Below, piece by piece: positions 15,876-46,567 of a stretch of 64,000 nt of DNA. The position numbers were made by a program, and so were the translations under genes. The notes under the pieces were generated by a model, which saw only the letters and a program-made list of their open reading frames with translations, was not told where the DNA came from and ran no database searches. The first letter of the stretch is position 1; each line of letters begins with the position of its first letter. Source of the stretch: Marsupella aquatica (taxonomy: Eukaryota > Plantae > Marchantiophyta); the NCBI GenBank assembly GCA_973895155.1, contig OZ316894.1:17576563-17640562 (forward strand). Reading direction: 5' to 3'.

Positions 15876-16104
15876 TCGATTCTGCTTCAAGAAGAAATTT
15901 GAGCGGGGGTACGTAAATGGCCAACACTAGTGGTTTCACACAAGATGCACATGACAACTGCAAAATAGTTTCAAAATTTGTAGAACATCTCTAAATTGTT
16001 GGAGTACAATGCTGTTGCAGACTTCAATGTCTGCAACTAAATCAAAATTGCAATTGCTACTTCCTGTGAGCTATTATTTGAACTTGTTACCACTGTGGTG
16101 TAAA

Positions 16105-16836
16105 CTAAGTCAAGAGCTCATTGCTACAAAATACTTCCCCACAATAGGTGCACCTAAATACTTCATGCCCAGACTCATCTACTCCCAGCAACTCAACATT
16201 AACTCTATGACCATCTGCTTTGATAGGAGCCCTCCATTGTGCACCCATTGCACTAAATTGTCGTTGAAGCCATGCCTCCGCCTCAGAATGGGACCTAAAA
16301 GACTTGTGACTAGCTCCACTGAATCCGCTCACCTGACATTCTGCCTCCTCCCAAGTACGATATATTCCAGGACTGCGCCCCCTAGCAATGGCATACCATT
16401 TCTTCTTTGAGGTAGAGCCTAGATCACAATTGTATGGAAGAGCAATTGACTTAGAGCGAGAGGACAAAGTCTGTGATTGTAATTTCACCCTTGTGGCAGG
16501 CTGAGTTTGCGCAACGTCAACCAATTGTGCTTGTGAGGCTGACAAAGATGGACCTGCATTAGCACCCTGGCGCCGAGCCAATACAGGTTTTGGTGGGCCA
16601 ACAACAGCCACTACAGGGGAATCGTGACCCTCTGATTTTGATGGCACTATACTTTGAGCAAGGGGAGGCAGCCTATCTCGATTCCACACTGAAGACAAAC
16701 ACAAAATCCGTTCCAACATGCGATGGAGGAAGAAGAGTAGTGCACTCAAACCTGCAAATACGGTCCATATGGCGAACCCCAATGCCCAAAACAACTGAAC
16801 TACAAAACCAACACTGCATTCGTTGAACTTTGCCAT
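16105..16836 (-). CDS. MULE cargo protein with an RNase H1 N-terminal hybrid-binding (caulimovirus viroplasmin-like) domain
   Basis: KWYAIARGRSPGIYRTWEEAECQVSGFSGASHKSFRSHSEAEAWL matches the hybrid-binding-domain consensus. Also has a hydrophobic N-terminus and a C-terminal CTYC motif. Confidence 0.75.
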   Translation of the reverse strand: MAKFNECSVGFVVQLFWALGFAIWTVFAGLSALLFFLHRMLERILCLSSVWNRDRLPPLAQSIVPSKSEGHDSPVVAVVGPPKPVLARRQGANAGPSLSASQAQLVDVAQTQPATRVKLQSQTLSSRSKSIALPYNCDLGSTSKKKWYAIARGRSPGIYRTWEEAECQVSGFSGASHKSFRSHSEAEAWLQRQFSAMGAQWRAPIKADGHRVNVELLGVDESGHEVFRCTYCGEVFCSNELLT

Positions 16837-16859
16837 TGCCAAATGGCAATCCTATCCTT

Positions 16860-16990
16860 GGCGCTCTCGTTGTCGCTCTCCTGTCCCTGGTGCTCTTGCT
16901 CTCTCTGGCGCTCTCGCTCTCTCTGGCGCTCTCGCTCTCTCTGGCACTCTCGCTCTCTCTGGCGCTCTCGCTCTCTCTGGCGCTCTCGGG
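16860..16990. repeat. 18-bp CT-rich minisatellite (CTCTCTGGCGCTCTCGCT)n
   Basis: About 5-6 tandem copies visible directly. Confidence 0.9.
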
Positions 16991-17409
16991 CGCTGCACAA
17001 TCTACTCAGACCCCTCTCTCTGGCGCTGCAGTGCTGTCCTGTCCGTCCTCTACTACACTGGTCTCCTAAGACCTCCTCCCTTTGTTGTCACTCACGTGGA
17101 CGACTTCAAAGACTCCGCTTTAGTCCGCTCGCAAAACGCGCACATTCTCCATGGAACACTCAATGTCGACCAACGGTCCCGCACGCCAATATCATTGCGG
17201 AAGTAGATTCAAATTTGAAGACATTATGGTCAATGTCTTCAATAACAATGAAGGAAGTTAAGAAGACAACATGGTCGCTGTCTTCAAGTGCAAGGATGGA
17301 AGATAAACGGAAAGACAACATGAATATGTTGTATTCATCAGAGAATAATGGTGGAAAAAAGTGACAAGAGTCTGTTTTGATGCACAACCAAAGTTCAGTA
17401 AATAAGTAA

Positions 17410-20400: not shown

Positions 20401-21332
20401 TTGAATAGCAATTTGAAACTCACGGTCTTCCATCTGCAATGGCAGCACAAACATACCATGCATCAAAACACAGAGTGACAAGTATTACATTTCTAACCCT
20501 TCAAAAAAACCACAATGATATAGGTATGGACTCTTCAAAAGCTTTACCTCTTCCGCTGTCAATAATGGTTCTGCATAGGCATTGTGTGTCCTTCGTGTCC
20601 CCCTTGGTTCGGATGTCATTCCTCTGTCACGGAACCCACTATACTCACCGTAACGACTGTTATAGTGCCAATCTAATTCATGTTCATGTTCATCATCCAA
20701 TTCATGGATATATAGTGAATCTTCATCTTCTGAACTATCACTACATTCAAAACTGTCTGGCCCAGGTCTGATGTCACCACTTGACTTCCTTTCATGTCGA
20801 TGAGCAATCTTACTAAATCGGCAAACCCTTGTTCGAAAATTGGGGGAGGTTTTAAGTCTATACACTACTCGGCCATGCATGACAGCCCACGAGTCCAAAC
20901 ATCTATCAAATTCATCAAAATTGTTAAAATGCTCGCCCAGATGAATGCGAGCCGCCTCTGCTTCCACTGCCAAGAGCATTGTAGAATACATAATGAAGAA
21001 CGTCTATGGGAGCTCTCCACTTCAACAGTGCAAAACTTATGATTCATACGGGAGCAACTTCATACTTAAGCCAAACAAATCCTCCAAATACTAACTTGAA
21101 GCACAGTAGATTCACCTTCTTCGGGACTCTTCCCATCCAGGATTGATTTCAGATTTTTCAGATGTCTTCGTGTTGTTCCCCGCCTTGCTCTTTGTGGTGA
21201 TTGCCTGTCAGAATCGGGAATGTCCACCTCACAGACATCCCCTCGACGCCAAAGATTGATGTCACTTACATCATTTGCCATCCTGTACTTCAATGTGCAT
21301 ATGAGTACTGTGCAGAGGTTAGTCATGTCCAT
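17410..21332 (-). CDS. Mutator (MURA/MuDR-like) transposase, multi-exon; outer exon limits approximate
   Basis: MULE domain ISLDACH..LFLATCLDGNGQ..ENTDNWIWFL..ISDRQKGL..CANHL, then TSNPAEQAN, SWIM finger CTCWELQEMVWPCEH and zinc knuckle CSKCGQVGHNRRSC. GT-AG introns lie between the ORF pieces. Confidence 0.9.
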
Positions 21333-21726
21333 TTAACGTAAAGCTCAAAAACATTTACTAAGCCACATGCGAAAGGGCTCTGCAGCCCATGAACTGACGT
21401 CATTTCCTGACAGTGTTTGTGCCTTCAATTTACACATTCTAACATCTGCACAGTAGTACCTTGTTTTCCTCTGCAATCGATGGTGGCAGGTGCGTGCGCC
21501 GTGCGCCGTGCGCCTCGTGGAAAGTTGAGTGTACTTGTTATCGAGCATGGACAAAAGTTGGGATGGGAGGATATTAAAAAATTATGGAGATCAGTTTACA
21601 AATAGAATACAATCATGTCAATGTATTCGCATTCGCGTAACATAACCCTAATGTTGATCGTGGCGGCGTGGATGGGCAAATGCCCGATTTTGAGTTCTAA
21701 TTACGAGGTCCCGTTGCCTGATTACT

Positions 21727-22086
21727 GCGCGCTTGACCCTAAACCACCCCGACAATGTGCGCCCCGACAATGTGCGCCCTAAACAGAAATTTTGTTGAAG
21801 ACATAAACCACGAAGTATTCACGCTCATAAGGGACCATAGTGCGAGAACGCAAAACCGCGTAGTTGCAGCCCTACTGCAGCGGAGTCTCATGGTCGACTG
21901 CGGGAGGCGACCCTGCGTGGTGGCATGGCTCCCAACTGTGCAGTATGGCCTTTACACGGGGGAAATTGGCTTACACGGGATAAAAGGGTACGGGCCATAA
22001 TGAGGGGGCTGATTGGGGCAAAAAAGTTTGGAGGGGGCTGATCAAGTAAAGTTTCTCCTGGAGGGGGTCTATTGAGCATATCCCTC
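21727..22086 (-). repeat. MULE right TIR
   Basis: Reverse complement of 9218-~9572, with a small internal duplication (CCCCGACAATGTGCG twice). Confidence 0.93.
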
Positions 22087-22991: not shown

Positions 22992-25041
22992 TTAAGTTTG
23001 GGTGGATGGTCTTAAATATAGCAAAGATTAAAAAATTTAGAGGGGTGCCAGAAATAAATTAAAAATCTAAACTATACAAGGGATGCACCTTGGTAAGACA
23101 CATTAAATTAAAAATACATAAGAAAAAAAGTTTAATAAAACAAAATACTGGAAAGTGGATTCACCATATAGCAGTTTTCAGGATTGCTTTGCAACTAATA
23201 TTTATCCTATATTTTTGTCAGGTATAGGTGGGCAACAGGCAGCTAAGTCACTACGTGTGTGCTTAGTAATGATGATCCACATTAATTAGCCTGGAGACTG
23301 CCTGTTTTTAATCGAGACACCCAGTCAATGACATAACAATTCATATGGACCATCAAATTTTCCAATTGGGTATGGCAAATTGGACCAACCTGTGCCCCTA
23401 AAGTGGTGGACATGCTTAGAAAATCTGGTTTTCGACTTGTCGACTACTAGAAAAAAAAGTTGTGTACGTCGAAGCAACTCGGGATCGCACCGTACATCCT
23501 GGGCGGAAATCCCGTAGCTGGGAAGGTCGGCGGTGGCCTTCGCTCCCCCTGCCCCATAAGAATTTCTTACATTCTATAGCGGTAGAGTTGTTCGGGATTC
23601 GAGGGAGTGGATTGACCTGTTTGGCCGTCCGGCAGCATTGTTTCTGCTGAATGAAAATTTTGAGTCAAATGAATGACTTTTCAGTCGATGTGGAAGGGCA
23701 GGGCGTTTTCCAACACTGCACTTTGATCAGTCCATCGCTTACGGTGGAGTCTGCAGCGTTTTGTCACGGGAACCCGCAATATCAAAAGTTGTTGATGCCC
23801 ATGAAAGTTTCAGCTGGAAGAAGAGCCTGTGAAAGTTCGGGCAAGTCAATCTCGTTGAGAAAGCATGAATAGCTTGAATTTTCTGATTCTGGCGCATGCG
23901 TTGATTGGTTTCGAATTCTCGAGCTACAATCATGTTGCTGAGAGAGTGAAGTTTAAGGGTTTTGGAACCTCTCTAGTCGTTTCTTAGAGGTATATTCAGA
24001 ACCTTTCTGCCAGGTCATCGTGCAGGATTCCTATCTGGAAATGTTCAATCGATGGTAAAGAGCAGGAACGTGTAAACCCTTATGTTCAATTTATAGTTTA
24101 GGATGTAGGTGGCCGAGAGCCGGCTTTTCTGTTTTTGAGCGGGCAAAATTAAATGCATCCAAGAGCATAATACGTTGTGACTTCTACTAATCTCGTGCAG
24201 AAAGAGGCACACCAAGTTTTGGCCCGGTCCACCAAAAGGTCTCTGAGATGCATCACTGAAAAGATAATTTTATACATTTCTGCAATGCACCACTCCAATA
24301 TTTTCGAGGGTTTCAGTCTAAAGAGGCCCCAATTCACTTCCACGTGGATCTCGCCGGCGCTGCACCTTTTGACACAATCCATCAGAACTTTAGGGATTCT
24401 TCAATTGGACCGGATGACTTTCCTGATCGCTTTACAAGGTGAAAGAGCCACAAAGACTCAGTAGTCTTCCTTCCGATTACGAGAAAGGGCCGCAAAGACC
24501 ATAGTAAACAATCGTCAAGTAATTGGGTTTCTCCCTGTGAACCGTGTTGGCAGAGTCAACCCTCCCTTTGCCCAGCGGAGGTGACAATTCTGTCACATTT
24601 GCTTTTGGGTTTAGGGTTTGTTGCTCTTTGCTTGCAAGAAAGCAGCGATAAGGAACCAGTATTTGAGGAAAGTACCAGCAAGGGAGCAAACTAGTAAAGG
24701 CGAACAGAGGGCACGAGCAACTGAGGAAATACGAGACAGGGAAGCCACTCTCATTCCTTGTTAGGGTTTCTACAAAGAGAGAAAGAGACACCCCGATTGA
24801 ATCCTAAACCAAGCAAGGTTAACAAGTAGTACACATTAACCTTGCTTGCCATTATGTAACCACCAGACCAGATACAATGAGAGTTTTGTGACAACCTTCT
24901 GAAACGACATTTTGAAGATGGTATGGATGGAAGTAATTGATTCAAAGACCAAAACAAATTCAATCTCTGTATTTCTGGTCCTCAGTTAACCCAGTGGCTC
25001 AATACCACACAACACAATCGAAGACATGATACGACGAAGAA

Positions 25042-26685
25042 ATGATAGAACGTCTCGGCCGCATTTTGAGAAGGGCCGTCCTCTTGAGTGGAGGTGGTCT
25101 GAGTGTGGGTTTGGGGATTGCATATGCCACAGACGACGGAACGAAGAGGGCTGTGAGACTATGGACTGGTATTGGCCCAGTAATTGCACACTACAGATTA
25201 GTGGAGTTCAAACAAAAGATTTTGAAGCAATCGAGACAATCCTTGTTTGCAAAAGCAGAATGGAGCAGATTGCATCATAAATACTCAGATCACGTCCTTC
25301 AAACAATCCAAGAGCTCGGTGGATTCTACATCAAGATAGGGCAGGTCTTGGCCAGCCGCAAGGATCTAATGCCCAAACTGTACATTGAGAAACTCCGAAC
25401 GCTTGAAGACCAGGTTCCCCCTTCTGCTAGTCCGCAGATCATCGAGAACATCTTGAAGACATCTCTGGGAGTCACGAATTTGGAGGACATTTTTGTGGGT
25501 CTGTGCATCGAAAGCCCTTTGGGAACTGCTTCAATTGGGCAAGTATTTCGTGCGAGATTGAAGGAAAATTTGAGTGCCGACGTGGCCATAAAAGTTCAAC
25601 TCCCGGGCGTTGAACATCTGTTCCGATCTGACATCAAGACGGTAAAATCATTTTGCAAAGTACTTGCTCCAGAGCAAGTCGCCGTGTTCGATGAGATCGA
25701 ACGCCAATTCATGACGGAGTTTGACTACAGGAAAGAGGCGGGACACTTGGCTCAAATTCACAAAAACATGAAGAGATTCAAAGAAGTGGTAGTCCCAAAA
25801 CCTTGGATGAAATACTGCACCAAGGAAATTCTAGTCATGGACTATTTGCCTGGTCCCAAACTGATCGATGGAATTAGAGCACAAGGTAGAAAGTGGGCAG
25901 CCAACCAAGGAATCAATTATGACGACTTCGAGAAAGAAATCATAGCCAAGTACGAGAAAGAGGGGCTGCCTCCTGCGTACAATGCACCAGATGTTCATTT
26001 CCTAGACATATATCGTAGAATTTCAATCATTCAAGAACATTTTCTCAATTCTTCCCTTCTTTTGTACAATATCATTGCGCATGTAATCAAAGCTATCTCC
26101 TTTGGAATCATATCCCTTCCTTCACTACCGTACTATGACTTCTTCATACCATTGAATTCGGCTCGAATTATGAACACTCTTCTTAGCGTGCATGGCCACC
26201 AAATTCTTGTGGATGGATGTTTCAATGCGGATCCACACGCTGGGAACTTCCTCCTCCATCCTGATGGCAGGATTGGGTTGATTGACTATGGTCAAGTGAA
26301 GAGATACACTAGACAAGAGAGACTTGAAATTGCAAAGATCATTGCTGCAATGTATAAGAATGATCAAAGATACATCCCTCACATGGTGATAGCAAATGGG
26401 TATAAATCGAAGTACTGTAATCCTGATGTGATTCGCAAGATGATTGTGGTTGTGCTTGATAGAGATGGGAGAGACGTCACTGATGGACTGAATGTCCAGG
26501 AATTCATGGATAAAATGTATGCCCTAGATCCCTGGGAGAAAACGGGAGATTTATTCATCATGCCCTCTAGAGTGTCATTTCTGTTGAGAAGCATTGGGCT
26601 CATGATGAACAATCCTGTCTCTGTATTGCAAGTGTGGGGGCCAATAGCAGAGAAGGTCTTGAAGTCTGAGGGAATGATGAGTTGA
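25042..26685 (+). CDS. ABC1/UbiB/ADCK atypical kinase, intronless, 547 aa
   Basis: LGGFYIKIGQ (KxGQ), PLGTASIGQVFRARL, VAIKVQ.PG, EFDYRKEA, FNADPHAGN, GLIDYGQ. One uninterrupted ORF with an organellar-type N-terminus. Confidence 0.93.
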   Translation: MIERLGRILRRAVLLSGGGLSVGLGIAYATDDGTKRAVRLWTGIGPVIAHYRLVEFKQKILKQSRQSLFAKAEWSRLHHKYSDHVLQTIQELGGFYIKIGQVLASRKDLMPKLYIEKLRTLEDQVPPSASPQIIENILKTSLGVTNLEDIFVGLCIESPLGTASIGQVFRARLKENLSADVAIKVQLPGVEHLFRSDIKTVKSFCKVLAPEQVAVFDEIERQFMTEFDYRKEAGHLAQIHKNMKRFKEVVVPKPWMKYCTKEILVMDYLPGPKLIDGIRAQGRKWAANQGINYDDFEKEIIAKYEKEGLPPAYNAPDVHFLDIYRRISIIQEHFLNSSLLLYNIIAHVIKAISFGIISLPSLPYYDFFIPLNSARIMNTLLSVHGHQILVDGCFNADPHAGNFLLHPDGRIGLIDYGQVKRYTRQERLEIAKIIAAMYKNDQRYIPHMVIANGYKSKYCNPDVIRKMIVVVLDRDGRDVTDGLNVQEFMDKMYALDPWEKTGDLFIMPSRVSFLLRSIGLMMNNPVSVLQVWGPIAEKVLKSEGMMS

Positions 26686-29755: not shown

Positions 29756-31488
29756 AACAAGAAGCCTTAAGGGATGAGTCCAAAGCCTTATTTCTCTTTT
29801 CAAAATCTTCATGATATTAAAAAATGTGTACCAAAAAACCACCAAAAAATGGTATGTATTTTCCAAACTAGACTCAAGAGAATTTTACCACCAAAATCTA
29901 AGCATATCTTATATGATATTCTCACAATTGTATAAACCTTGAAATATGCACTTTATAAAAGTAATCAAAATCAAACTCATCGATCAGAGTTTAAGTCAAA
30001 CTCAAAGTTTTACAAAATATAACCCAACTTAAGCCCAAGTGGTTTCAAATGCTACAAGTCCCTCTATTTATCTAGTCTAATCCAAAGGGACCGCTTCCCC
30101 TTCCTCGGTTCCGGAAGTCCTTGTCGTCAATTTTGGAACAATTGTGGCATCGTCAACCACGCTATCCTCTCCGGCCTGAGGAATGTCTTCCTCACTCTCC
30201 TCATCCGTCTCCCCCTGTCCGTCTTCCTCTTCAATGTTATCTGCAAGGTTAAGAATCCTCCCTTTCAACACACTGCTCTGTCGCTCGTCAATCTCAATGG
30301 CAACGCAATGTCTCCCCATGGCCAAGGAGGAGGTTGTCCCAGTCCCTGATCCTGAACAAATATCCAAAACCCAGTCTCCAACCTGACTAAAATGACTCAC
30401 TTCCCAATCTAACAATGCACGTGGTTTCTGATAAACATTCACTGCCTTGTTATCCCCGTTGTGTTTCAGCTTCTTAGTCACAGCTGCGCATACAACCACA
30501 TTGTTCCTTGATTCATTTGTGTCAAAATTGAAGTGCTCCAATGACCGTTTACCATCCTGGCTGTGAAAGCCAATTGTAAAGCACTCAAAGTTGTTGTTCA
30601 ATCTTGGTCCACCAGCATTCTTCACATTATCCTTAACCCTGAAAAGTCACAAAAAGTCAAGGAGTTATTTAAACTTAGAAACATGGTTCATGAAATCATG
30701 AATAACTAATAGTTGTTTTTTTCAAAAACAAATATTTCTTACCACACACAATTCTGGAACTCTCCATTACACTCCGCTTTCAAAACGGTCTTGATGGCCT
30801 CATATTGGTCAAGGCTGTGGTGAATGATAATACGCCACAACTTTGCAGTAGTAGCCACCTTGAACGATTGGACCATTTTTGTGATCTCCTCAGTTCCTGG
30901 GCATCCAATAGTGTCCTCATGAAGACATCCAGGCAATGCAAACCCGTAGGGAATATCCACTAAAGCTAATGTGTAAGCCCGACCCGGAACCACCTCATGT
31001 AATCGCTGAGCATCATGAGTAAAAATATCATAGTGCACATCACCAAACTCTGGATGCTCAAACGAATTTGGATGAAGTTCCCCCTCTTGGGTTTGCCGAC
31101 TAGAAGTCTTCATGGATAGCCAATTTTGGGCTTGCACAATATGCGCATTGAATTTGTCCGGGAATGACTTGAGATCTTTGCCTTCCTCATCTCCCTTCTT
31201 TTTCTGGGAGGTGGTATCTTTCTACAAAAAGGAACTATAGAATTAGAAACAAGGATTCCAAATATTAAATGAATTCAAACAATCATTCAAAGAAAGGTGA
31301 CAGAATCTTACCCATGTCTGGAAAACAGGTACGAAATTCTTAAGCACATTGTCTGTGCAATGCTCAGGGTACTTGGTTTTACAACCTGACCAACTCTCCT
31401 CGTGTAGACACGTGAGGAAGGCCTTCTGCACCTGCATCTGAAATTTGTGTCGAGTAAATTCGTGACCCATTTCCTGTAAAGAGAGTTC
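29756..31488 (-). repeat. Left arm of a large inverted repeat
   Basis: Near-identical reverse complement of 38612-40217. Confidence 0.95.
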
Positions 31489-31747
31489 TTTAGTAAGAAC
31501 TCTCTTTAACACTGGGCAAATCATATCAGGATCTTTCAAGGCCTGGATGTGTCTCCACTCTATTAATTTCATGTCCTCATAAGGCAATTTGGCATCTCCG
31601 GACTTAGAGACTTTCTTCTTGCCCTTGTCTCCTTTTTGACCTTTGATCTCACACATCTCCCACTTGTCACAAATCTGCCTCACAAATGACCACACAGGAT
31701 CTTGTCGGAATGCCAACTGAAATAGGTTATCATTGGCATTAAGAACC

Positions 31748-34700
31748 TGTGATGCCTAGCCAGGAATCACTCGGCCAGTGAAGTGGGTAAAGCAGGAATG
31801 CACCCTAGAAACACCTTAGTATAGAGACAAAACAAGGAAAATATAAACAATTAGGGGCGACTATGGAACCCAGGCCGAGGCTGGGGGTAAGGACGCTGGG
31901 GGTGAAAACTCAATTAGGGTTAGGGCGCGTTAAGCGTCGGCGGCTAGGAAGGATCAACGGGAGGAAGGACCTGAAGAGGAGAGGGGTAAGGAGCGCTTGC
32001 AGGAGATGGTGGCTCATTTGTGAGCACGAACTAGGCAGACGACTACGGGAGGCCAACTACTGACAGCTGCTTAGGCAAGCACTCGGGGAGAGAGTAGATA
32101 CCGACGATCGACCTAAGGAGGGTATGAGCAACATCAATCAAGCAGCACATTTCTGGGGATGCCTGTTCGAACGGGCAATTGAGTACATCAAGACTTACGA
32201 GGACGAGGAATCAGAAAGGGCAGCTCAAGAACGGCAGGAGCTCGCTCGATTGTGGGAGCTGCAGAAGACGGCTTTCTTAGGAGGCGAACTCATCAAGGAC
32301 AAGTTCTTGTGGACTCCTACTTCCAATCAGCTCGACGATCTTCTGTTTTGCAAAGACAACGTTGTCGGCATCCGAGAGGCCATCAAGAACTGCAACGACA
32401 TACACTGGGAATTGAAGGGTAGCACGGAAAGGTGGACCCAGGCAACGGTGCTAGGAGAAACCTCCACGGCAGCAGAGATGAAGAGGAAGGGAGCCGTCAA
32501 CGATGAAGCCACCCCGGCAAAAAGAACGAGGTCGGCGGCACCAAAGAAGCCAACCGAGCAGCAGAGCAGGAGGCAGGGAGAAGCCGAAGAGGAGGAGGTT
32601 GATCCCATCAAGGCCATTCCAACCAGGGATGACACCTGGAAGGGCTGGGCGGCAACCCTACCGGTGGAGGTGCAACTACATTTTGCACGGGAGGAGGATG
32701 CATGCTTTACGGCCATGCAGACCAAGAAGTACCAAGGCTTCATGGCCGGATCCGGCTTAGAGGCCTTTGTAAGATTACCATGGCTAAAGCCGGAGGTACC
32801 GGAGTCAGACCTATTAGAATTCGTGGGGTCATGGGAACCCGAGACCAATTGCACGAGGATATATGGGAAGGATTTCTATCTTACTCCCAAAGTGATTGCC
32901 GAAGTGTTTGGCTTGCCGATAGGCAATAAGACCAAAGTTGATACCGGGAAGACCTTGCCTGACAAGGAGTTCCGGTCGTTCCTCAGGCCATCAACGAAGA
33001 ATGGCTTCTTCCGGAACACCTGCACCAACCCGCACATAGGAGAGATGATCGACTTCTTGCGAGTGACCATGCATTGTAACTTGTCAAGGGCAGAGATCGG
33101 CAAGGCACAGGTCTATCTGACAGAGAGGCCAGACCCAAGCCGGGACTACAACGGGTACCTCCTCAACCAATTGAAGAAAATCTTAAAGGAGGAGCAGCAG
33201 GTAATCGGCATGGGGAGCGTGTCGCGGCTTGGCTATCACATGCCGTTGTTGTGCCGGTATGCCAGAGGTCAGACTTTTGCCCCAGTACTTCCCCTGCAGG
33301 TAAGGGCACCCGAGGAAGCTCCAGCACCGAGGCCGGTAGCAGAGAAGCCTCAAACACCTATTAGCCCTACGATCGAGCAGGTGTTTAGGCCAAGGAAGGA
33401 GGACTTGCCGATGCAGCAACCAGGCATGCAGAGTCTGCTGAAACTACTGGAGAAAGAAAAGAGATCGGCATCGGCAATGACAACGGCAACGGCAACAATG
33501 CAGGACACTACTCCTGAGGTAGGCCTACACCGGCTCACAAGAGAAAACCCCTTTGCTGGAGACAAGGAGAGAATCAGGCCGGAATCCAAGCCAGGTGTTC
33601 GAATGTATGTGGGAGTCTCAAGCTCTGAATCTGAGGCTGAATTGCCTGAAGCTCCTACGGATGAAGAGGAGAGGGAGAAGCCGGAAGTCCAAGAAGTAGA
33701 GGAGGCAGTGGAGGACTGCAGCCATGATAACTCCGACTATGGGTCGGACCATCACGTTCCAAGAGTAAGGACCTGTGGCCGGTTTGTCCCCACACTTCCA
33801 AGGGTAGTACGAGGGGACCCCAACCAGCAGAGTAGCCCTGAGTCTCCCCCACCAGATGTTGCTCCCCCGAGCTTTGACGGCATAAAACAGATGGCGCAGG
33901 AATTTCAGGAGCGAATCAGGCAGGAAGAGGAGGCAGCCCTGGCTAAAGAAAAGGATTTGCCAGGAGGAGATTGGCCGGAGGACATCAGGCGGCTAGCCGA
34001 AAAAGGAAGCAAACCTCTAGCCACGATTGAAGTGATCCGCAAGACGGCTTGGGAGCAGAGGCCGCGATGGGCGATGCCGATCACTTCTACTTACTCCACC
34101 TACGCTAAGAATAGAGCCATGGAGTATGGTGAGATGTGTGGGGAACTTGCGCTCGGCATCTTTGGAGAGGAGTTGGAGGTAGGACCCTTTTTCCATAGGG
34201 AGCAGTTGGAGAAGCACCAGTTAGAAGAAGCGGTGGCTTTAGAGAGAAGCAAGAAGGACGAGGTCATTCGGCGGCTTAGGAGGATGGAAGCCGAGATTGA
34301 AGATCTAAGGGCGGCCAAGAAAGCCCAAGATGAACTGCGGATTAAACGGCATGAGCTGAACATCATGCAGGGGCAGTTGGACACCGCGCAAGCTGATAAT
34401 CAGAATATCAAGGATAAACTGACTCAAACGCAGGGAGAGTTGGCCGATATGATCAAAGAGAGGGAGAAGTGGAAGCAAGAGCTGAGGAATGCAGAGGAGG
34501 CCCACATAACAGCCAACAGCCGGGCCATGGCGAAGACCCAAAGAAAGGAATGGGCGTTGAAGGGGGAGCTTGAGAAAATCCGCGGAGCCCTTGAGCAGAA
34601 GGAGGCCGAGTTAGGAAAATCCTATCAAGGGATTATGGCGCTGCAGCAGGAGCTTGCGTCCCTGACGGCCAGCTTCAAGGCCGACCTAAGGGAGAAGGAC

Positions 34701-36417
34701 GAGATGCTCGATCAGACTTACGCCAAGATGAATCAGATGGAGTCTGTCATCATTGCAGAGCTCGACAAGGAGCTAAGAGCAAACCGGGAGGAGAGGGCTA
34801 CCTTGAAGAAAGAACGGGAGGAAGCCCAGAAGGAACTAGAGGAGGCGCGCAAGGACCTGGATGAGACCCAGGAGGAGTTGGAGGAAATCACGAGGAAGAT
34901 GGAGAACCTCCAGCGGCGGGCCGACAACCAAACAGAGCGGCTGAAGAAACAAGCCGCAGTATTTAAGTGCTTGTCTTCATCAGGCCCAACTCCAATTGGG
35001 GCAACCAAGTTACCAGGAGTGGTACTGGCCGAAGAAAAAGCCATGCCACCTGCACCAGTGCCGGAAGTAAGTGGGAAGGGGAAGGGACCAGCTGCCGAAC
35101 CAGAAAAGAAGAAGAAGCGGAAACCTTCAGGGTCAAGGAGTAATACGACTCCACTAGCCGTGGTGACCAAGGAGGTAGACCCAGCACCAACCTCCGGCAT
35201 GAACACGGCAATAGATCCCGCTATCACCAAGGGTGGGGAAGGTGCGGCCCAAGCCGAACTACTCAATCATGAGGCCGGTATCCCAGATCCGTCTCTTGAG
35301 CAAGCCGGGGAAACCGTAGCCGAGGCTGAGGCCGTAGCCGAGAATGATTCCTGAGCCGATGCCGACGCCGATGGTGGACCCAGTTAGGCCGATGGAGAGT
35401 TGACTCAGTCAAGGGTAGGTAATCTGTCAGAAAATGAACCTACGGCAGTGGCTGAGGAGGAAGCGTTGGGGGCGTCCATTGAGGATCCACCACCGGTGTC
35501 GTGACGGTGCAAGGGCGCCGTTCCTTTTAGGAAGGGCGGACGTGGAGGGAGGAGGCGTGAGTGGGCAGGGCGGGCGCTGATCTCCAAGTTTAGGATTAGG
35601 ATCACGACCAGGAGCGGCCCTGACACATAGCTTAGTGGGATTGCGGTTCCACTGGTAGGAGCAACACTTGTGCTCCTGCCTTGCTGTACATAGGTAGATC
35701 CGGGCAAGTAGATTACTGTTAGGTAGATTAGGCTTACGCTGCAAAGAATTAGGCGGATCCACTACCAGGATAAGTACCTGGGCAGCGGGGAGCTCAGGGC
35801 CTCTTCTTTAGCAAGTTTTTAGTTGCACCAGCCGGGCTCGGATCAAGTAGTAAGAGAAGCTCTCGGTTAGTCATACAGTGACCCTTGTGTATATTCATGT
35901 TTCCTCATGCCTAAGAGCTGAATAGAGTTGGCCTCACGGCTTAGTTCATAGAGCTTGTGTATGAGATGTACTGTTTGTATGGCAAGTGCATGGTATGACT
36001 CAGTCAGAATGAGTCATTTTGCTATTTGTGTGTCGCATTAACTTGTGTGAAGAGTGCCCACATCAACTAGAAGGAAGGAAAGTAAGCACGGGAGTGAGAG
36101 TTGGATGTGTCGAGCTGAGAGAGGTCTTAGCGGCTTAACCAAGCCTATTGGGGATCATTCCAGTGGCGGAATCCAAACATACCTAACAAGACGGAGGGGA
36201 AGACGAGGGAAGGCCTAGATTAGGCCGGCTACGTATCTCATGACCCGATGAAGGATCTGTCTAGTATATGTGTGTAAAATGTTAATAGTAGTAGTAGAAG
36301 GTTAGCAGCGTCCCATGCCGCTAAGCCACGGAAACGGCCTCGCCAAGCGCGAAACCTGCGGGAATCGGCTGGAGCTGGGGGATTTCTTGGGTTTAGGGAG
36401 CCATGGGACGCACCACA
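31748..36417 (+). mobile_element. 4.67-kb TG..CA insertion (solo-LTR-like) with a 5-bp TSD
   Basis: Starts TGTGATGC and ends GCACCACA (imperfect inverted termini); GAACC at 31743-31747 and 36418-36422. No paired LTRs, gag or pol seen inside. Confidence 0.85.
32124..35354 (+). CDS. 1076-aa retroelement accessory protein (plant-transposon-protein-like domain plus long coiled coil)
   Basis: Intact intronless ORF. GLEAFV..LLEFVGSW..IYGKDFYLTPKVIAEVFGLP resembles extra ORFs of plant Ty3/Gypsy elements. A ~250-aa heptad coiled coil and a basic KKKKRK motif follow. Confidence 0.75.
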   Translation: MSNINQAAHFWGCLFERAIEYIKTYEDEESERAAQERQELARLWELQKTAFLGGELIKDKFLWTPTSNQLDDLLFCKDNVVGIREAIKNCNDIHWELKGSTERWTQATVLGETSTAAEMKRKGAVNDEATPAKRTRSAAPKKPTEQQSRRQGEAEEEEVDPIKAIPTRDDTWKGWAATLPVEVQLHFAREEDACFTAMQTKKYQGFMAGSGLEAFVRLPWLKPEVPESDLLEFVGSWEPETNCTRIYGKDFYLTPKVIAEVFGLPIGNKTKVDTGKTLPDKEFRSFLRPSTKNGFFRNTCTNPHIGEMIDFLRVTMHCNLSRAEIGKAQVYLTERPDPSRDYNGYLLNQLKKILKEEQQVIGMGSVSRLGYHMPLLCRYARGQTFAPVLPLQVRAPEEAPAPRPVAEKPQTPISPTIEQVFRPRKEDLPMQQPGMQSLLKLLEKEKRSASAMTTATATMQDTTPEVGLHRLTRENPFAGDKERIRPESKPGVRMYVGVSSSESEAELPEAPTDEEEREKPEVQEVEEAVEDCSHDNSDYGSDHHVPRVRTCGRFVPTLPRVVRGDPNQQSSPESPPPDVAPPSFDGIKQMAQEFQERIRQEEEAALAKEKDLPGGDWPEDIRRLAEKGSKPLATIEVIRKTAWEQRPRWAMPITSTYSTYAKNRAMEYGEMCGELALGIFGEELEVGPFFHREQLEKHQLEEAVALERSKKDEVIRRLRRMEAEIEDLRAAKKAQDELRIKRHELNIMQGQLDTAQADNQNIKDKLTQTQGELADMIKEREKWKQELRNAEEAHITANSRAMAKTQRKEWALKGELEKIRGALEQKEAELGKSYQGIMALQQELASLTASFKADLREKDEMLDQTYAKMNQMESVIIAELDKELRANREERATLKKEREEAQKELEEARKDLDETQEELEEITRKMENLQRRADNQTERLKKQAAVFKCLSSSGPTPIGATKLPGVVLAEEKAMPPAPVPEVSGKGKGPAAEPEKKKKRKPSGSRSNTTPLAVVTKEVDPAPTSGMNTAIDPAITKGGEGAAQAELLNHEAGIPDPSLEQAGETVAEAEAVAENDS

Positions 36418-38611
36418 GAACCTCAGCATCCTTTCGTACACCCCAATCCTTGAGATTGATTTCAGTAGCACACTCTTTCTTGAAATCCTGGTTGGACAAC
36501 AATCCATTCTCAACAAATCTCATGTGAATATAATTTACTCTCTGGATTGTCGTCCGGATTGTCGTCATCTGTTGTCGAAATTCAGAATCAATATTGTGAC
36601 TCCACGCCAGGTTTCTTGCCTCTTGCACACTCAATCCCGCAAATATCCAAGATTGCACTCTCCGAAATGCCTTGTTGTTAGGGAACTGAAGAGCAAGGTC
36701 TGCTTTGGCACAGGCTGAATGGTTGCCCCCAATCACATAATAATGGTAATCAGCTTTCCTTGAAAAATCAAAGTCTTGCCTAGTAGCACACTCCTTCGGA
36801 TCCACCAAGAGGACAAACGGAGCTGCAAGTGGACTGGCACCTACAGTCTTCATACGCAAGGTCAATTGGGTCAAGAAATATGGTTGGATGTGTCGGACCT
36901 GGTAAATGGGCAAGCCCACAGCCTTCTCTCTCACTGGAGGGTAAAGTTGACCAATGTCAACGGTCACGGTCTCCTCTTGAACACCACATCTTCCCAGAAT
37001 CTCCTCCTGGTACAATACCCGTGCATCCATTGACATTGATTGAGCCTTTTGCTCCAAATGCGTTGGAATTTTCTCCAAAGTCTTCTTTTTTGACTTTGGA
37101 GCACTGGGCTCGGTAGGCTCAGGAGTCATAGCAGGTCACTTCTTTGAAGAAATGCGAGTTCCAGTCGTACCTTGTGCCGACCCACCAGTCAAAGCCGTTC
37201 CCTAGGATGATCTGCCAACTTGAGATCCCCCTCCAGATGCTGCTGCTTCCTGGGAGGTTGTAGGCGCTACCACGGTCAAAATATCATCGGGTAAAATGCT
37301 AGGCCTGGATCCAGAAGGAACACCGGAAGCCCCAGATTTGGGTGGATGACTTACCCCCTTCTCTGCCGACCTTTTCCGGAGAATCTCTCTTGATTTTCGG
37401 ATTGCACTCTTTAAAGTGCTAGCGTGAAATTCAAACACAAAACCGGAAATCTTTCCTGCGACGTCGTGGTAACGTTCCTCACTCGAAAGAGACTTGACAG
37501 TCTCAATGATGCTATCGATGTCCTCATCGAGATAGCAGGTGGCAGCCGTTCCAGAAAACCTCTCCACATCCATGACAATCAAAGTTGATGTTTCCTTCGT
37601 TGTGATCAACATGTTCACAACTTCGTCGCCCCGTCAAAATACATCGATGCGGCCGTAATTTACCCACCTTAATGCCCCCGATGGAAGCCCCTCAAATACA
37701 CACAGCATTAGGAAGGGCTTCTTCCATGTTTCCGTCCCTAAGGAAATCATCCAGGATGAGTTGTGGAAGTCCGTCAAAGGATGGCGCGAAAAGATGTCAT
37801 CCACCAGCTCTTCTTGCGACATTGTCATGCTTTTGCCTGATCTTCAAACCTGAGAACATACCACAAAATCAGTCCACTTCAACCCCAATCTGCGAGACAA
37901 AGTGCCACAGAACCAAGGAATGTGCCAACAAATGGCTAAAGCCGTGTCCTTACGGATCTAACAATGCTCTCGGCCACCCCAGGACTCCTATCATGAATTC
38001 ATGAAGGGAGTCTCCCTCTCGCTCTGACCTTCATGAATTCATGAAGGGAGTCTCCTCTCTCTTTGCTTGTACACCTCGGTGATGCAGAAGGGTATTTAAA
38101 ATAGTGTTCGGAGGGGGGGGGGTGACGTGAAGAAATCACCCAGGGCCTAAATTACTACCTAAAACAGGGTCGAAATGAAGTGCGACCGCGACAACTCGCG
38201 ACACGTCGCCGATGAGTGCTGAAAATGGCACGAAATTGGACAACGAGATTGTTTTTCACTCTTTTACAAAGGAAATCCAAATGACATTGAGTGAAAATGA
38301 ATGGGCTGCCCCGTGTTCCTTGGTTATACATACTAATCACGGATCAGGCGCGACTTAGTAAAATTAACCCCGAATCATGATAAATCAATGTTTTCGGGCC
38401 AATTATTCATGAATATTTTGGGATATTAACGGGAAAAAGCTTGCAAATTTCATGAATATTTGATATTTTTGAAGTTAAAAAGTCCCAACAATCCGTGAAA
38501 AACTATAAATAGGCTCGTTTATTCATGACTCTTGGTCATTATTTTGAGAAGATTTGTTAGATTTTACTGATTTTCTGAGTTTCTTGTCAATTTGCACTAG
38601 TTTTTCCAATG

Positions 38612-40217
38612 GAACTCTCTTTACAGGAAATGGGTCACGAATTTACTCGACACAAATTTCAGATGCAGGTGCAGAAGGCCTTCCTCACGTGTCTACACGA
38701 GGAGAGTTGGTCAGGTTGTAAAACCAAGTACCCTGAGCATTGCACAGACAATGTGCTTAAGAATTTCGTACCTATTTTCCAGACATGGGTAAGATTCTGT
38801 CACCTTTCTTCGAATGATTGTTTGAATTCATTTAATATTTGGAATCCTTGTTTCTAATTCTATAGTTCCTTTTTGTAGAAAGATACCACCTCCCGGAAAA
38901 AGAAGGGAGATGAGGAAGGCAAAGATCTCAAGTCATTCCCGGACAAATTCAATGCGCATATTGTGCAAGCCCAAAATTGGCTATCCATGAAGACTTCTAG
39001 TCGGCAAACCCAAGAGGGGGAACTTCATCCAAATTCGTTTGAGCATCCAGAGTTTGGTGATGTGCACTATGATATTTTTACTCATGATGCTCAGCGATTA
39101 CATGAGGTGGTTCCGGGTCGGGCTTACACATTAGCTTTAGTGGATATTCCCTATGGGTTTGCATTGCCTGGATGTCTTCATGAAGACACTATTGGATGGG
39201 GAACTGAGGAGATCACAAAAATGGTCCAATCGTTCAAGGTGGCTACTACTGCAAAGTCAACTATTAGTTATTCATGATTTCATGAACCATGTTTCTAAGT
39301 TTAAATAACTCCTTGACTTTTTGTGACTTTTCAGGGTTAAGGATAATGTGAAGAATGCTGGCGGACCAAGATTGAACAACAACTTTGAGTGCTTTACAAT
39401 TGGCTTTCACAGCCAGGATGGTAAACGGTCATTGGAGCACTTCAATTTTGACACAAATGAATCAAGGAACAATGTGGTTGTATGCGCAGCTGTGACTAAG
39501 AAGCTAAAACACAACGGGGATAACAAGGCAGTGAATGTTTATCAGAAACCACGTGCATTGTTAGATTGGGAAGTGAGTCATTTTAGTCAGGTTGGAGACT
39601 GGGTTTTGGATATTTGTTCAGGATCAGGGACTGGGACAACCTCCTCCTTGGCCATGGGGAGACATTGCGTTGCCATTGAGATTGACGAGCGACAGAGCAG
39701 TGTGTTGAAAGGGAGGATTCTTAACCTTGCAGATAACATTGAAGAGGAAGACGGACAGGGGGAGATGGATGAGGAGAGTGAGGAAGACATTCCTCAGGCC
39801 GGAGAGGATAGCGTGGTTGACGATGCCACAATTGTTCCAGAATTGACGACAGGGACTTCCGGAACCGAGGAAGGGGAAGCGGTCCCTTTGGATTAGACTA
39901 GATAAATAGAGGGACTCGTAGCATTTGAAACCACTTGGGCTTAAGTTGGGTTATATTTTGTAAAACTTTGAGTTTGACTTAAACTCTGATCGATGAGTTT
40001 GATTTTGATTACTTTTATAAAGTGCATATTTCAAGGTTTATACAATTGTGAGAATATCATATAAGATATGCTTAGATTTTGGTGGTAAAATTCTCTTGAG
40101 TCTAGTTTGGAAAATACATACCATTTTTTGGTGGTTTTTTGGTATACACTTTTTAATATCATGAAGATTTTGAAAAGAGAAATAAGGCTTTGGACTCATC
40201 CCTTAAGGCTTCTTGTT
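38612..40217 (+). pseudogene. Inverted partial duplicate of the methyltransferase 3' half (right arm)
   Basis: Translations are almost identical to those of 30077-31488. A ~130-bp deletion at ~39256 removes an exon end and its splice donor. Confidence 0.92.
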
Positions 40218-41110
40218 CTTGTAGGAAATTGCATAGACCCTATGCGTTTGCGAAACTCGGTCCGCTCACCTCGTGTCAAAACCCAAGGAGGATGAATAGT
40301 AAGGGGGGCATTATCGGGATCCATAGATGGCCAAAAACCATGAGGGCCATGCATCCCCATCTCTTCACAACTCTCTCTCCAGTTGTTGTCTTTCTCTCCA
40401 TATAGGTGGCAAATCAAGGACCTCCCAACATTTCCCTCAAAGTGCATAGGGTCAAATAAATGGTTAAGTGGCATCTCAGCCCAATAAGGCAGTTGTGACA
40501 ATGCAGACAAACAAGTCATGCCACACCGGGCATACTGCAATGGGTCATCTGGATTAGATACTCTTTCCCATACCTCTTTCCAATATGCAGGATCTTTTGG
40601 AATAGGTTGTGGTCGTCTGTCTGGTTGGCCATCCTCAGTGTCATATAAAAAGGGGTCTCTCCTCCAATCATGGTCTGGAGGGAGGTACTTGGTGTGACCA
40701 ATATACACTTCTTCCTCAAGGTCTTTGACTTTGGCCGCGCTATTCCTTCCAAATCAGGTCCACAAGTTGGGCAAGCTCGATATCCTGATGTGGTCAGGCC
40801 AGAAATATATCCAAACCCTGCATATAAATATATATCCCATGCATAAGTAAATAAGTTTATTAAAAGATATATGTGCTCCTAGCTAACTCAATACATAACA
40901 AAGTATGCTAGGTACGGTTGCCTAGCTATGGGAAGGGATAATTTAACAAAGATTCATACCTGGAAGATCATGTATGGTCCACATAAGAATGGCCTTCAAC
41001 TTAAATTCTCGACGTAAGCCCCCCGTTTGCACTTGACCATCATAGCAATCCACACCCCTCCAAAGCTTTTGTAGCTCCTCAATCAATGGTTGCAAGTACG
41101 TACATCAATT
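40196..41110 (-). pseudogene. CACTA TnpD transposase, central part
   Basis: YLQPLIEELQKLW..LKAILMWTIHDLPG, intron 40959-40818, then FGYISGLTTSGYRACPTC..YIGHTKYLPPDH..QLPYW..HLFDPMHFEGNV. Confidence 0.9.
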
Positions 41111-43954: not shown

Positions 43955-46215
43955 ATAAAAGGCAGAATGAATAGTTTATATGGGAACTTGTTATGAAAAA
44001 AAGGCAGGCGGAGTATTTTAGAAAGGTATTTGTGCTAAAAACAAAAGGCAGACTTAGTGTTTTATATCAAACTTGCTACTTAAAAATGACAGACGGAGTA
44101 TAATATGAAGATATAATTGTGCTTAAAAAGAAAAGACAGACTGAGTAGTTTGTAAGGGAAGTTGTAATTAAGAAAACGGGCAGACAGAGTATTTTATGAA
44201 GGTACTTGTGCTTAAACAAAAGGGTAGGCTGAGTAGTTTGTAAGGGAACTTGTGGAATTAGCACAACCGGGCAATCAAATTATTGTCAGGCTGGACAGCC
44301 ACATTTAAAGCTATTACCAGCCCTCCGAACCCCATCACCTAATGTCCTATTAATGGGTTATTTCCCCCTCTCAACATAGTACTGTACTTATTTTGGTGTC
44401 TTTGGGGAGACAATGATCCAGAAGGGTTTAGGCCCCTGCGCATTTAGCTGATCTCTCAGTTTATTATTAAAAAAATGACAGACAGGAGTATTTTATAAGA
44501 ACTTGTGGTCGTGCTAGGGAGAGGGAATAGGTTATGAGGCCTTGTTATTCAAAAAAGGGCAGAAGGGGTATTTTATATTATTTAGGGGAACTTGTGGTTG
44601 GGAACGGAAAAAAAAGGCAGACAGAGTATTTTATAAGGGAACTTGTGCATAGAAAAAAAGGCAGACGGAGTATTTTATAAGGGAACTCATGCTTAGGAAA
44701 AAAAACAAGGTCCCGGCACCCCTCCAGGCACAGGGGTGTGAAGGGTATATTTGTGTGTGGGATGAATTTGTGGGTAGTGGATGGGAATTGAATTCTGACT
44801 GATTATCTTTTCAGCCTTGGTTGACGGCTTTGTGACCCTGATTTAATATTCTCTCCCTCCTGGTGCACGTCCTTCTCAAATCAATGGGGGCTCACCCTAA
44901 ATTGGGTTCCTTAATATATGTCACTATTGGGGTGGAGAGAGTCTAGTGAGTGTTCTTCCTCATTTCCTTTGAAGCCAAAACAGAAAACAGGCAGACTGAG
45001 TATTTTATAAGGGAACTTGTGCTTAGGAAAAAAAAGACAGGTGAAATATTAATCCACAAATGCCCCTATAGAGAGCTACGGGTTACCCCAATAGAGTGTG
45101 CAGGTTCAGGAATGTGCCAAGGTGGTGAGACATATTTATATGGGCAGGTGTGGTTTAAGTATAGGTGAACTTGTGCTCAGAAGGGCAAAAAGGGCAGACG
45201 AACAGCTCTTGGTGCACACAGCTAGGTCTTGCCCACACTTGTCAAAAACGTGTCTGACTATTGGGGAAAAAAAGGCGAGAAGACCAGTCAATTTTGAGAT
45301 GCTTTTTGCTTCTACAGTTGTCATGGTGTTGCGATGGTGTTGTGATGACCTGAATGCCACTCCGCAAGCTGCGAGGGATTTGCGATCAGTGTCTGTTTGC
45401 AACCGCCAGAATTCTAGAAATTGGGCACTTGTTTGGCTTTGCAAAAGAGCTGATAGTGTTGTAGCGACTGCATGTCTTGTGGGGACCAAAGGGCAAAGGC
45501 TAGAAACTTTCCGTCCCTTAAAGCTTGCAGGTCCCAACCTTCGGGGGCCTCATTCTAAATGGGGTCTCATATCATGCTCAACATTTTTAGCTAATAAACA
45601 CCCTAAAAAATAAGAACAAAAAGTGTTTAAAAGTGTTTTTCTATTTTCAAAATTCATTTCTAAAACACTATCTTTTCTTATAATTCTCAACATTGAATTT
45701 AAAAAAACCTAATATTCTTCTACAGAAATTTTAAAATATTTTGCTCAACCCAATAAACAAACAGTATATTTACTTTTGCATATGGGTAGAAAGTAAATAA
45801 GTGAATATCACGGGCCCAATCTTTGCTTTGCAAATAAACAAACCCTGCATAGTGCTGCCACTTCCCTACATAGTGCTGCCACTTCCCTACATAGTGCTGC
45901 CACTTCCCTGCATAGTGCACTCCATAATCCCTTGCAGTTTAACGACAAAGATGAGTGCCAAGAAAGAAGATTTTGTTGTTTTCAAGACGCAAGGGCAAAG
46001 GGCAGCATTCTGAAGGACAGATGACCACAAGTGTTCTTCCTCGTATCCTTTCAAGCCAGGGAAGAAAAAAAGAGAAAAGGGCTGACGGAGTATTTTATAA
46101 GGGAACTCAAGCCAGAAAAGAAAATAAGGGAAAAGGGCTGACGGAGTATTTTATAAGGGAACTTGTGGGTAGGGGAGAAAAAAAGGCAGACGTAGTATTA
46201 AATAGGTGAACTTGT
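43955..46215. repeat. Clustered ~43-bp repeat family (AAAAGGCAGACGGAGTATTTTATAAGGGAACTTGTGCT)
   Basis: More than a dozen degenerate same-orientation copies at ~43960-44255, 44475-44700, 44990 and 46080-46215. Confidence 0.8.
45848..45918. repeat. 21-bp tandem repeat (CATAGTGCTGCCACTTCCCTR) x3
   Basis: Visible directly. Confidence 0.9.
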
Positions 46216-46567
46216 GCTCTGGAAAAAAAAAAGGGGGCCGAGGGAGAGCTCTTGGTGCACACGGCTATGTCGTCTTCCAACACTCGTCACGAATGTGTCC
46301 GACTATCGGGGCGAAAAAGGCAAGAAGACCGGTTCCGAGGCTCATCAGCAAAAAAAGGACCTGGGTTTTGGATCCCATCGAGATCAATTACTCGGAAAGC
46401 CGCCATCCAGGGGAAGTCGAATCTCTAGCCTTTGCCTTTTCCTGTGAGGCCGCCTCGTCTTTCCCGTGAGGCTGCCCCATCCGATGAAACATGGTGGTCT
46501 CTCGATCGTCGACAGCGTTGCCACGGTCAACGTGCAATGCGTCTTTTGGCTACGACAGCCCCCTACT

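Follow-up and report, generated by a model that had tools for sequence, protein, structure and literature searches.

What would a ParB-like protein joined to a DNA methyltransferase do among the transposons of a liverwort? The question is raised by an intron-bearing gene on the minus strand (37828 to 30077) of a 64,000-nucleotide stretch of Marsupella aquatica DNA (contig OZ316894.1, positions 17,576,563 to 17,640,562), the whole of which we call the window. The gene encodes a predicted ParB-fold domain followed by an amino-methyltransferase. We propose that it is transposon cargo whose product binds palindromes of its own element, methylates the element's adenines and helps the element to resist silencing; as a complete chain, pieced together largely from sequence, this proposal falls a little short of an even chance.

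The gene had originally been predicted, from the sequence alone, as one long reading frame that appears after removal of an insertion and two GT-AG introns. Our script rebuilt that frame from the window sequence: with a 4,670-bp insertion and both introns removed, it spans 960 codons (2,883 nt), of which exactly three are internal stops, and it contains all the motifs that had been named, namely GGNHS (aa367), DIPY (aa703), WVK (aa774), YQKP (aa843), DICSGSG (aa866) and GRHC..AIEID (aa882-891). The features of the gene are as follows (SAM, S-adenosyl methionine; TSD, target-site duplication; ORF, open reading frame).

37829..38612, minus strand: upstream region of the gene, multi-copy; the family runs on past 38612 in sequence that is not in the window.
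36418..37828, minus strand: exon 1, 5' part; N-terminal domain without a name, low-complexity linker and, from about 37012, the predicted ParB/Srx-fold domain (GGNH at 36730-36719).
37634..37636, minus strand: internal stop 1 (TGA).
37202..37204, minus strand: internal stop 2 (TAG).
37136..37138, minus strand: internal stop 3 (TGA).
36542..36565, minus strand: in-frame 12-bp duplication.
31748..36417, plus strand: insertion with TG...CA ends, TSD GAACC and an ORF at 32064-35354; very high copy.
31312..31742, minus strand: exon 1, 3' part; helical region with a colinear but non-significant alignment to the ParB helix-turn-helix (HTH) region.
31222..31311, minus strand: intron 1 (GT-AG, 90 bp), position common to L001 and L002.
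30743..31221, minus strand: exon 2; N-terminal half of the methyltransferase, catalytic motif IV DIPY at 30957-30946.
30639..30742, minus strand: intron 2 (GT-AG, 104 bp), position common to L001 and L002.
30077..30638, minus strand: exon 3; QKP, SAM-binding motif I DICSGSG (30364-30344), acidic tail and stop.
29756..30076, minus strand: 3' non-coding region, common to both window copies of the gene; meets a truncated Copia element at 29755.

Both introns (31311-31222 and 30742-30639) interrupt identical codon positions in two independent relatives, the loci L001 and L002. A further 5' intron is present in L001 (2073-2310) and L002 (1008-1124) and missing from the window copy, which indicates that introns have been gained or lost within the family. 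Each of the three stops (TGA at 37636, TAG at 37204, TGA at 37138) is, in its codon context, a single C-to-T change away from CGA or CAG, and because of this the stop pattern would fit decay under host CG/CHG methylation. An additional lesion, the 12-bp tandem duplication, is found neither in the relatives nor in a high-depth contig of the family, which shows 12 gaps at that place. With its stops, insertion and duplication, the window gene is a dead copy, as had been claimed. The duplication had no place in the original prediction, nor had the inverted partial copy, the palindromes and the link to a transposase described below.

To what kind of unit does the gene belong? We compared contigs from four public sequencing runs, among them X1, X3 and X4, with the window, taking contig depth as a rough copy measure only and not as copy number. 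The empty insertion site is real, because contigs of two of the four runs (depth 574 and 1,371) join 31741 directly to 36417; many copies of the gene lack the insertion. Contigs of the gene stand at a depth of 540-621 in X1, against 14-21 for flanking contigs with zero mismatches, and the empty-site joint stands at 1,371 in X3, against 39-53. Because these depths are so far above those of the flanks, they suggest roughly 25-45 gene copies per genome and bear out the claim that the gene is multi-copy. The upstream region is represented by a 1,134-bp contig (depth 484) with a loose end at 38612 in both X1 and X3, and no family sequence continuing past that point was found in the window. What follows at 38612 is a second, inverted partial copy, from the end of exon 1 through the 3' region. 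It carries 14 substitutions over 1,606 aligned bases and has lost about 124 bp, the intron-2 donor included. Its 3' region adjoins a transposase fragment, tail to tail:

38612..40217, plus strand: inverted partial gene copy, from its alignment to the left copy; palindrome at 39272-39285.
40220..41100, minus strand: intron-bearing CACTA/EnSpm transposase fragment (Transposase_21, 37.6 bits against a cut-off of 28.6).

The junction recurs outside the window: an 88-base contig of X4 (depth 403), with one difference from the window, spans the gene/transposase boundary (40189-40276), and X4 also holds a rare deletion joint at depth 45. Contigs in X1, X3 and X4 extend the transposase frame beyond the junction, and the depth of the intact transposase (258 in X1, 1,141 in X3) is of the same order as that of the gene. 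Our reading is that a parent CACTA element carries the gene and the transposase in tail-to-tail orientation, and that a deletion derivative has been amplified beside it. The repeated junction thus supports the DNA-transposon carrier of the original prediction, the ends of the element not having been found, and the gene is probably CACTA/EnSpm cargo.

Some observations touch this region. The two gene copies stop at nearly the same point, to within 1-5 bp (29755/29756; 40217-40220), one joined to a broken Copia reverse transcriptase and the other to the CACTA transposase; the point may be a break hotspot or the end of a cassette. At 30895-30905 the left copy reads Gly-Cys-Pro-Gly, the right copy Gly-Trp-Gly and the relatives Trp-Gly, a local change of the left copy. 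The interval 43957-46333 holds dispersed copies of a motif of about 35 bp, with a 21-bp unit repeated about four times and ending in TAGTG at 45848-45917; its X1 depth resembles that of the intact-transposase contigs, so it is possibly a subterminal region of the same family.

What, then, would an intact protein do? The original prediction placed a ParB/Srx-like GGNH domain ahead of a beta-class amino-methyltransferase, and both folds and the motif order are supported, by different routes. The methyltransferase stood up to a profile search, exon 3 passing Pfam N6_N4_Mtase (PF01555) at 35.4 bits against a cut-off of 26.7 (E 1.4e-8), while the GGNH domain had no Pfam match at E<=1 and was recognised by its fold instead. 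In the methyltransferase half, motif IV (DIPY) precedes motif I (DICSGSG), the permuted order of the beta class. A profile built from exon-3 relatives finds beta-class enzymes in the PDB, among them M.MboIIA, CcrM and M.RsrI. The AlphaFold model of the Calypogeia relative P0083 (mean predicted local distance difference test score, pLDDT, 65; about 90 in the core) matches CcrM best (E 3e-13), followed by M1.HpyAVI, M.RsrI and M.PvuII, with the bdelloid (Adineta) N4CMT in tenth place.

The original prediction left open whether the enzyme would write N6-methyladenine (6mA) or N4-methylcytosine (4mC). Our motif scan of 239 proteins of the family gave 53 rows with methylase matches, 20 of which cover motif IV: all 20 have Asp there and none has Ser, 13 read D-x-P-Y, and the window, L001 and L002 all read DIPY. 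Many database rows of the family are decayed copies. Since Asp stands at motif IV in every covering row, against SPPY in the Marchantia and bdelloid 4mC enzymes, 6mA is predicted to be the likelier, if not the certain, product, and 4mC becomes the less likely of the two. Asp-type 4mC enzymes exist, so that the Asp motif does not strictly exclude 4mC; L047, which is annotated as an N4 enzyme, carries DLPY. From these motifs and models, we predict that intact copies probably encode an active adenine methylase.

The plant ParB domain gave no ParB match in Pfam, NCBIfam, PHROGs or PDB sequence searches and was revealed by folding only. For a model of the GGNH domain (pLDDT 72), the top 10 Foldseek matches are all ParB, Noc or PadC (E 3e-4 to 2e-3), and in VIA-align the top 8 of 48,161 chains are of the ParB/Srx type (PadC: Z 9.2, root-mean-square deviation 3.1, 95 aligned residues), the ninth falling to Z 3.9. 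The model also matches KorB and sulfiredoxin in Foldseek and VIA-align, and phage ParB proteins in BFVD. In the ESM Atlas the domain meets a ParB_N cluster at 0.93, and the relative P0199 matches the ParB-like phrog_1033 (E 3e-4). On these models, the GGNH domain has the ParB/Srx nucleotide-binding fold. Together with the downstream helices it gives a profile of which 175 columns, spanning the two nucleotide boxes and the HTH, are colinear with a profile of six bacterial ParB proteins; a second ESM Atlas search, made as an HTH test, returned nothing at 0.9 or above. The modelled protein thus resembles a ParB core to which a possible DNA-binding region is joined. The arginine patch of the ParB CTPase clamp has the motif GxxRxxA, seen as GERRLRA in L035; because GGNHS replaces it in the plant domain, clamp behaviour driven by CTP (cytidine triphosphate) is uncertain. 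Of additional note, clusters from molluscs and sponges, and the fungal DUF3723, are also linked with the ParB domain in the ESM Atlas.

A ParB-like protein would need sites to bind, and a candidate is present in the element. Its unit is TCATG-N4-CATGA, which occurs in the window at 37991, 38031 and 30688, and once more at 39272 in the duplicate:

37991..38004, no strand: palindrome TCATG-AATT-CATGA, upstream site 1.
38031..38044, no strand: palindrome TCATG-AATT-CATGA, upstream site 2, the core of a 20-bp perfect palindrome.
30688..30701, no strand: palindrome TCATG-AAAT-CATGA in intron 2, aligned with the intron-2 sites of L001 and L002.

The upstream pair lies 170-210 bp ahead of the start with a spacing of 40 bp. 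L001 repeats this arrangement (1233 and 1273, 40 bp apart, and intron 2, plus a site at 346), and so does L002 (316 and 358, 42 bp apart and within 32-bp hairpins, and intron 2). Perfect sites number 3 in the window element, 4 in L001 and 3 in L002, against expectations of 0.01, 0.014 and 0.002, and such numbers arose in 0 of 500 simulations for each; the remaining 53 kb of the window have none, nor do 48 of 50 fetched loci, which are mostly prokaryotic. The intron-2 site aligns between the window element, L001 and L002, against a background of saturation in the remainder of the intron and at synonymous sites. The motif was noticed on inspection of these same sequences, but multiple testing does not account for its recurrence at homologous positions in three elements. 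The central four bases are element-specific: AATT or AAAT in the window, ATTT or ATAT in L001, and CTAG three times in L002. Because the cores differ between elements and yet match within each one, at sites separated by some 3 kb, as parS or VANC target sites do, the pattern points to co-evolution with a binder that the element itself would encode. The ParB-methylase protein is our predicted binder, a prediction that we hold somewhat more readily than its opposite. As a separate candidate signal, the TCATGA hexamer was rejected, with 13 sites in the window element, 12 in L001 and 0 in L002. A divergent ORF without a Pfam match lies upstream of the gene in L001 (1-703, minus strand) and has two palindrome copies in its coding sequence.

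How old is this cargo? At E<=0.001, 427 representatives were recovered with the exon-1 profile. Organisms were looked up for 20 of the longer relatives among the 150 listed, and 15 carry an organism name, all of them eukaryotic: Chara braunii (7), Riccia sorocarpa (3), Adiantum nelumboides (2), Ginkgo (1), Ptychodera (1) and Exaiptasia (1). Other searches add Calypogeia (2), Riccia and Ginkgo, the closest named relative being from the leafy liverwort Calypogeia. Paralogues number at least 7 in Chara and at least 4 in Riccia, and several subfamilies stand at 55-80% identity. ParB and methylase are annotated as parts of a single chain in proteins of Riccia (P0088, P0104), Ginkgo (P0089), Chara (P0100, P0149) and Adiantum (P0117); the hemichordate and sea anemone proteins P0199 and P0238 share the architecture and lack catalytic motif IV. 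Among the window gene, L001 and L002, nonsynonymous divergence (dN) is 0.12-0.28 in both domains, against synonymous divergence (dS) of at least 2.26 or saturated, with dN/dS of about 0.05-0.11 in the methylase domain; on these rates the family is under purifying selection.

An unrooted tree of 35 rows, 14 eukaryotic and 21 prokaryotic or phage rows chosen from the matches (five non-PF01555 or redundant loci and fragmentary proteins were left out), separates all 14 eukaryotic rows from the others by a long-stemmed 100/99 branch. The plant sub-tree runs roughly in lineage order through Chara, Ginkgo, Riccia and leafy-liverwort-like rows. Prokaryotic genomes gave 30 of 128 pattern matches, limited in every case to a stretch of 45-120 residues surrounding the SAM motif, with 28-43% identity; the 20 phage matches listed reach 21-30% and concern the methylase only; viral contigs gave 0 of 34 pattern matches for the ParB part and 1 of 51, a weak one, for the methylase; and plasmids gave no match. 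A recent bacterial donor was rejected, the prokaryotic matches being confined to the SAM-motif region and the plasmids giving none. The sporadic or recent transfer that the original prediction envisaged therefore did not hold up, with only eukaryotes among the 15 named long relatives and a long 100/99 branch without a donor. Judged from its presence in Chara, liverworts, a fern and Ginkgo, and as degenerate forms in animals, the family is old, with no identifiable donor. An ancient origin from a phage-type ParB-methylase fusion (phrog_498, L044) is plausible.

From these parts we propose the following scheme. A dimer would recognise TCATG-N4-CATGA through its ParB-like helical region, as ParB recognises parS, and would load at the promoter pair and at the intron site, perhaps with spreading like that of a ParB clamp. 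The C-terminal beta-class domain would then move a methyl group from SAM to the N6 of adenine. The mark, or the bound protein, may keep the element's promoter open or regulate its own gene, as VANC does for VANDAL. The original suggestion that the enzyme writes on its own element would gain a concrete footing in the palindromes. In its boldest form, streptophyte CACTA elements would have carried such a one-protein partition-and-methylation device since before land plants, its dimer spreading from element-specific parS-like palindromes of its own promoter and intron and writing 6mA against silencing by 5-methylcytosine (5mC), with site and protein co-evolving between families. It would then be the first system to direct adenine methylation to specific sequences in land-plant nuclear DNA; this wider version is tentative, and we rate it as rather unlikely in full.

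Several results weigh against our proposal. On the carrier side, the X4 junction contig has just 31 bases on the gene side and is listed in one of the four runs, a scan of the rearranged window gave no convincing pair of CACTA terminal inverted repeats or TSDs around the gene unit, and no contig holds an intact gene and an intact transposase together. The palindrome evidence comes from three elements, and the distant loci L003-L005 lack the palindrome (L003 and L005 are short, and the match in L004 lies among long interspersed nuclear element and Gypsy remains). The colinear ParB/HTH alignment is non-significant (hhalign P 0.077, probability 0.7%), and the arginine patch is replaced, with GGNHS in 67 of 90 motif rows and a GGNHS-type sequence without Arg in all 90. 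At motif IV, 7 of the 20 rows depart from D-x-P-Y (DIPH, DFPC, DIPS and DALY variants), and the animal family members are without the motif.

These points feed different explanations. The gene could be cargo with an active methylase while the palindromes are bound by another element protein, TnpA-like or encoded by the divergent gene of L001, with a short site or intermediates of transposition as the target of the methylase. TnpA binds repeated motifs in CACTA elements, and the two further L001 sites inside the divergent ORF and the weak HTH match would agree with such a division of labour. What makes us consider it unlikely is that all three elements have their sites at the promoter and in the intron of the ParB-methylase gene, that neither the other CACTA remnant of the window nor its Mutator element has any, and that palindromes suit a ParB-type dimer, inverted repeats adjoining the red-algal ParB gene too. 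Little more than a slim chance is left, in our estimate, to a protein that is mainly a palindrome-binding regulator, its methyl transfer lost or incidental. The motif IV variants and the animal members point that way, and DIRS1 methyltransferase domains have been called likely inactive (PMC4738411); against it stand the invariant Asp, the kept QKP and motif I, and the low methylase dN/dS, and many of the database rows are decayed copies in any case.

The carrier itself could be read otherwise. Were the gene carried by a different mobile unit, be it an endogenous DNA virus or a cassette hopping between transposon superfamilies, the CACTA junction would be secondary. Phage ParB-methylase fusions with the same domain order (phrog_498; a Vibrio phage gene), the cassette-like common end point of both window copies and the red-algal PAG genes, described as moving among Plavaka, Mutator and Zisupton elements (10.1101/2025.02.11.637652), speak for this. 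Yet none of the 34 viral-contig pattern matches is a ParB-domain relative, no viral genes lie beside the gene in the window or in L001-L005, and the gene has spliceosomal introns, which leaves this origin decidedly unlikely. A domesticated host methylase, like MpDN4MT1 in Marchantia sperm, with fragments captured and amplified by CACTA elements, would account for the conserved introns, the strong purifying selection and the rough lineage order of the plant sub-tree. It would not be expected to leave tens of near-identical full-gene copies, many divergent and often broken paralogues per genome in several 55-80% identity subfamilies, or element-specific palindromes, and we regard it as very improbable.

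Does our proposal of a self-binding, self-methylating CACTA cargo have precedents? The nearest is in the red alga Bostrychia, whose Plavaka elements, of the EnSpm superfamily, are described as carrying a PF01555-SET gene (PAG2/PAG3 being the pair concerned) and a ParB-oxygenase gene beside inverted-repeat arrays, with self-modification proposed and not shown (bioRxiv 10.1101/2025.02.11.637652). The plant system shares with PAG2/PAG3 the EnSpm-superfamily carrier, a PF01555 methylase and ParB-like cargo, and inverted repeats by the ParB gene. By that description, the algal system has two genes, methylase-SET and ParB-2-oxoglutarate (2OG) oxygenase, with tandem repeat arrays, whereas the plant gene encodes a single protein, with three discrete palindromes, a Transposase_21 transposase and streptophyte hosts; a SET or oxygenase domain was matched neither in 45 relatives nor in the window exons. 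Like the phage ParB-methylase fusions of the ParB-terminase locus (phrog_498, L044), the plant protein has a ParB-fold domain followed by an amino-methylase; unlike them, it has no terminase context, and methylase identity is 21-30% among the 20 phage matches listed. Iyer et al. reported ParB-linked eukaryotic methylase clades in haptophytes, chlorophytes and chytrids, and their group-1 clade 6 and chlorophyte-type Dam differ from our family: they are FHA fusions of haptophytes or ParB-HTH fusions that belong to a different structural group, and none is from land plants in the part of the paper available (PMC4738411).

For the working model, not by homology, a close parallel is VANC, whose binding motifs lie in intergenic regions and introns of VANDAL Mutator elements (PMC5735166): both would pair a transposon protein with co-evolving short motifs in its own element. 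VANC removes 5mC and binds tandem motifs of the same orientation (PMC5735166), in contrast to a predicted writer with palindromes. Retrotransposons with DAM domains are likewise mobile carriers of a prokaryotic-type adenine methylase, linked to 6mA on their own copies; their DAM domains sit in polyproteins, and the text, as far as available, is without ParB, PF01555, Plavaka or land plants (bioRxiv 10.64898/2026.05.21.726589). MpDN4MT1a/b of Marchantia and bdelloid N4CMT share the beta-class amino-methylase fold in a eukaryote, but are SPPY-type 4mC writers and host genes, for which the available parts of the sources do not mention ParB (10.1101/2021.02.12.428880, PMC8885841); the plant family has D-x-P-Y and a ParB fusion. 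The best structural matches of the two halves, CcrM, M.RsrI and M.MboIIA on one side and ParB, Noc and KorB on the other, differ in identity (12-21%), in the altered arginine patch, in the introns and in the eukaryotic mobile context. A feature recalling the ParB clamp is that palindromes lie near the gene in all three close elements, the binding being predicted. TET/JBP genes are carried by fungal DNA transposons, and PMC12344493, in its available part, adds known 4mC cases only. No description of the plant ParB-methylase family and its palindrome was found in the literature searched, which covered few subscription papers, and the gene is apparently an undescribed, old streptophyte transposon cargo gene.

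In this family, which occurs in liverworts, ferns, Ginkgo and Chara at tens of copies per genome, a candidate writer comes with predicted addresses, the three palindromes of each element. If the proposal is true, a writer-type anti-silencing strategy would stand beside the VANC type, and the red-algal ParB and methylase cargo would extend to green plants as a single fused protein. A methylase that is aimed at particular sites by nature, and whose cores could be exchanged, would be of use as an epigenome tool as well.

Other features of the window are of lesser bearing. The insertion in exon 1 has a summed depth of 20,000-64,000 in X1, its 5-bp TSD on both sides and an 8-bp imperfect inverted repeat at its ends. 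Its open ORF of 1,096 codons may encode a coiled coil, with coiled-coil-type matches below cut-off only in Pfam and PHROGs searches, and neither an internal pair of long terminal repeats (LTRs) nor pol was found in it; it reads as an LTR-type element, apparently non-autonomous or solo-LTR-like. A second CACTA remnant (Transpos_assoc, Transposase_21), without the palindrome, lies at 491-1075 and 7823-8936. A receptor-like kinase and the remains of Copia, Mutator and CACTA elements mark the window as plant DNA, as does the closest named relative of the gene, from Calypogeia. An intronless ABC1 atypical kinase ORF (25030-26685; Pfam E 1e-47), which lies between transposon blocks in what appears to be single-copy DNA, is possibly a retrocopy or a transferred gene. 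Finally, a complete 12.9-kb Mutator-like element occupies 9218-22086, with terminal inverted repeats of about 350 bp and a 10-bp TSD, GATCTGTCTG; it contains a MULE transposase (17705-21003, minus strand) and ORFs at 11318-13186 and 16105-16851 (RNase H N-terminal domain).

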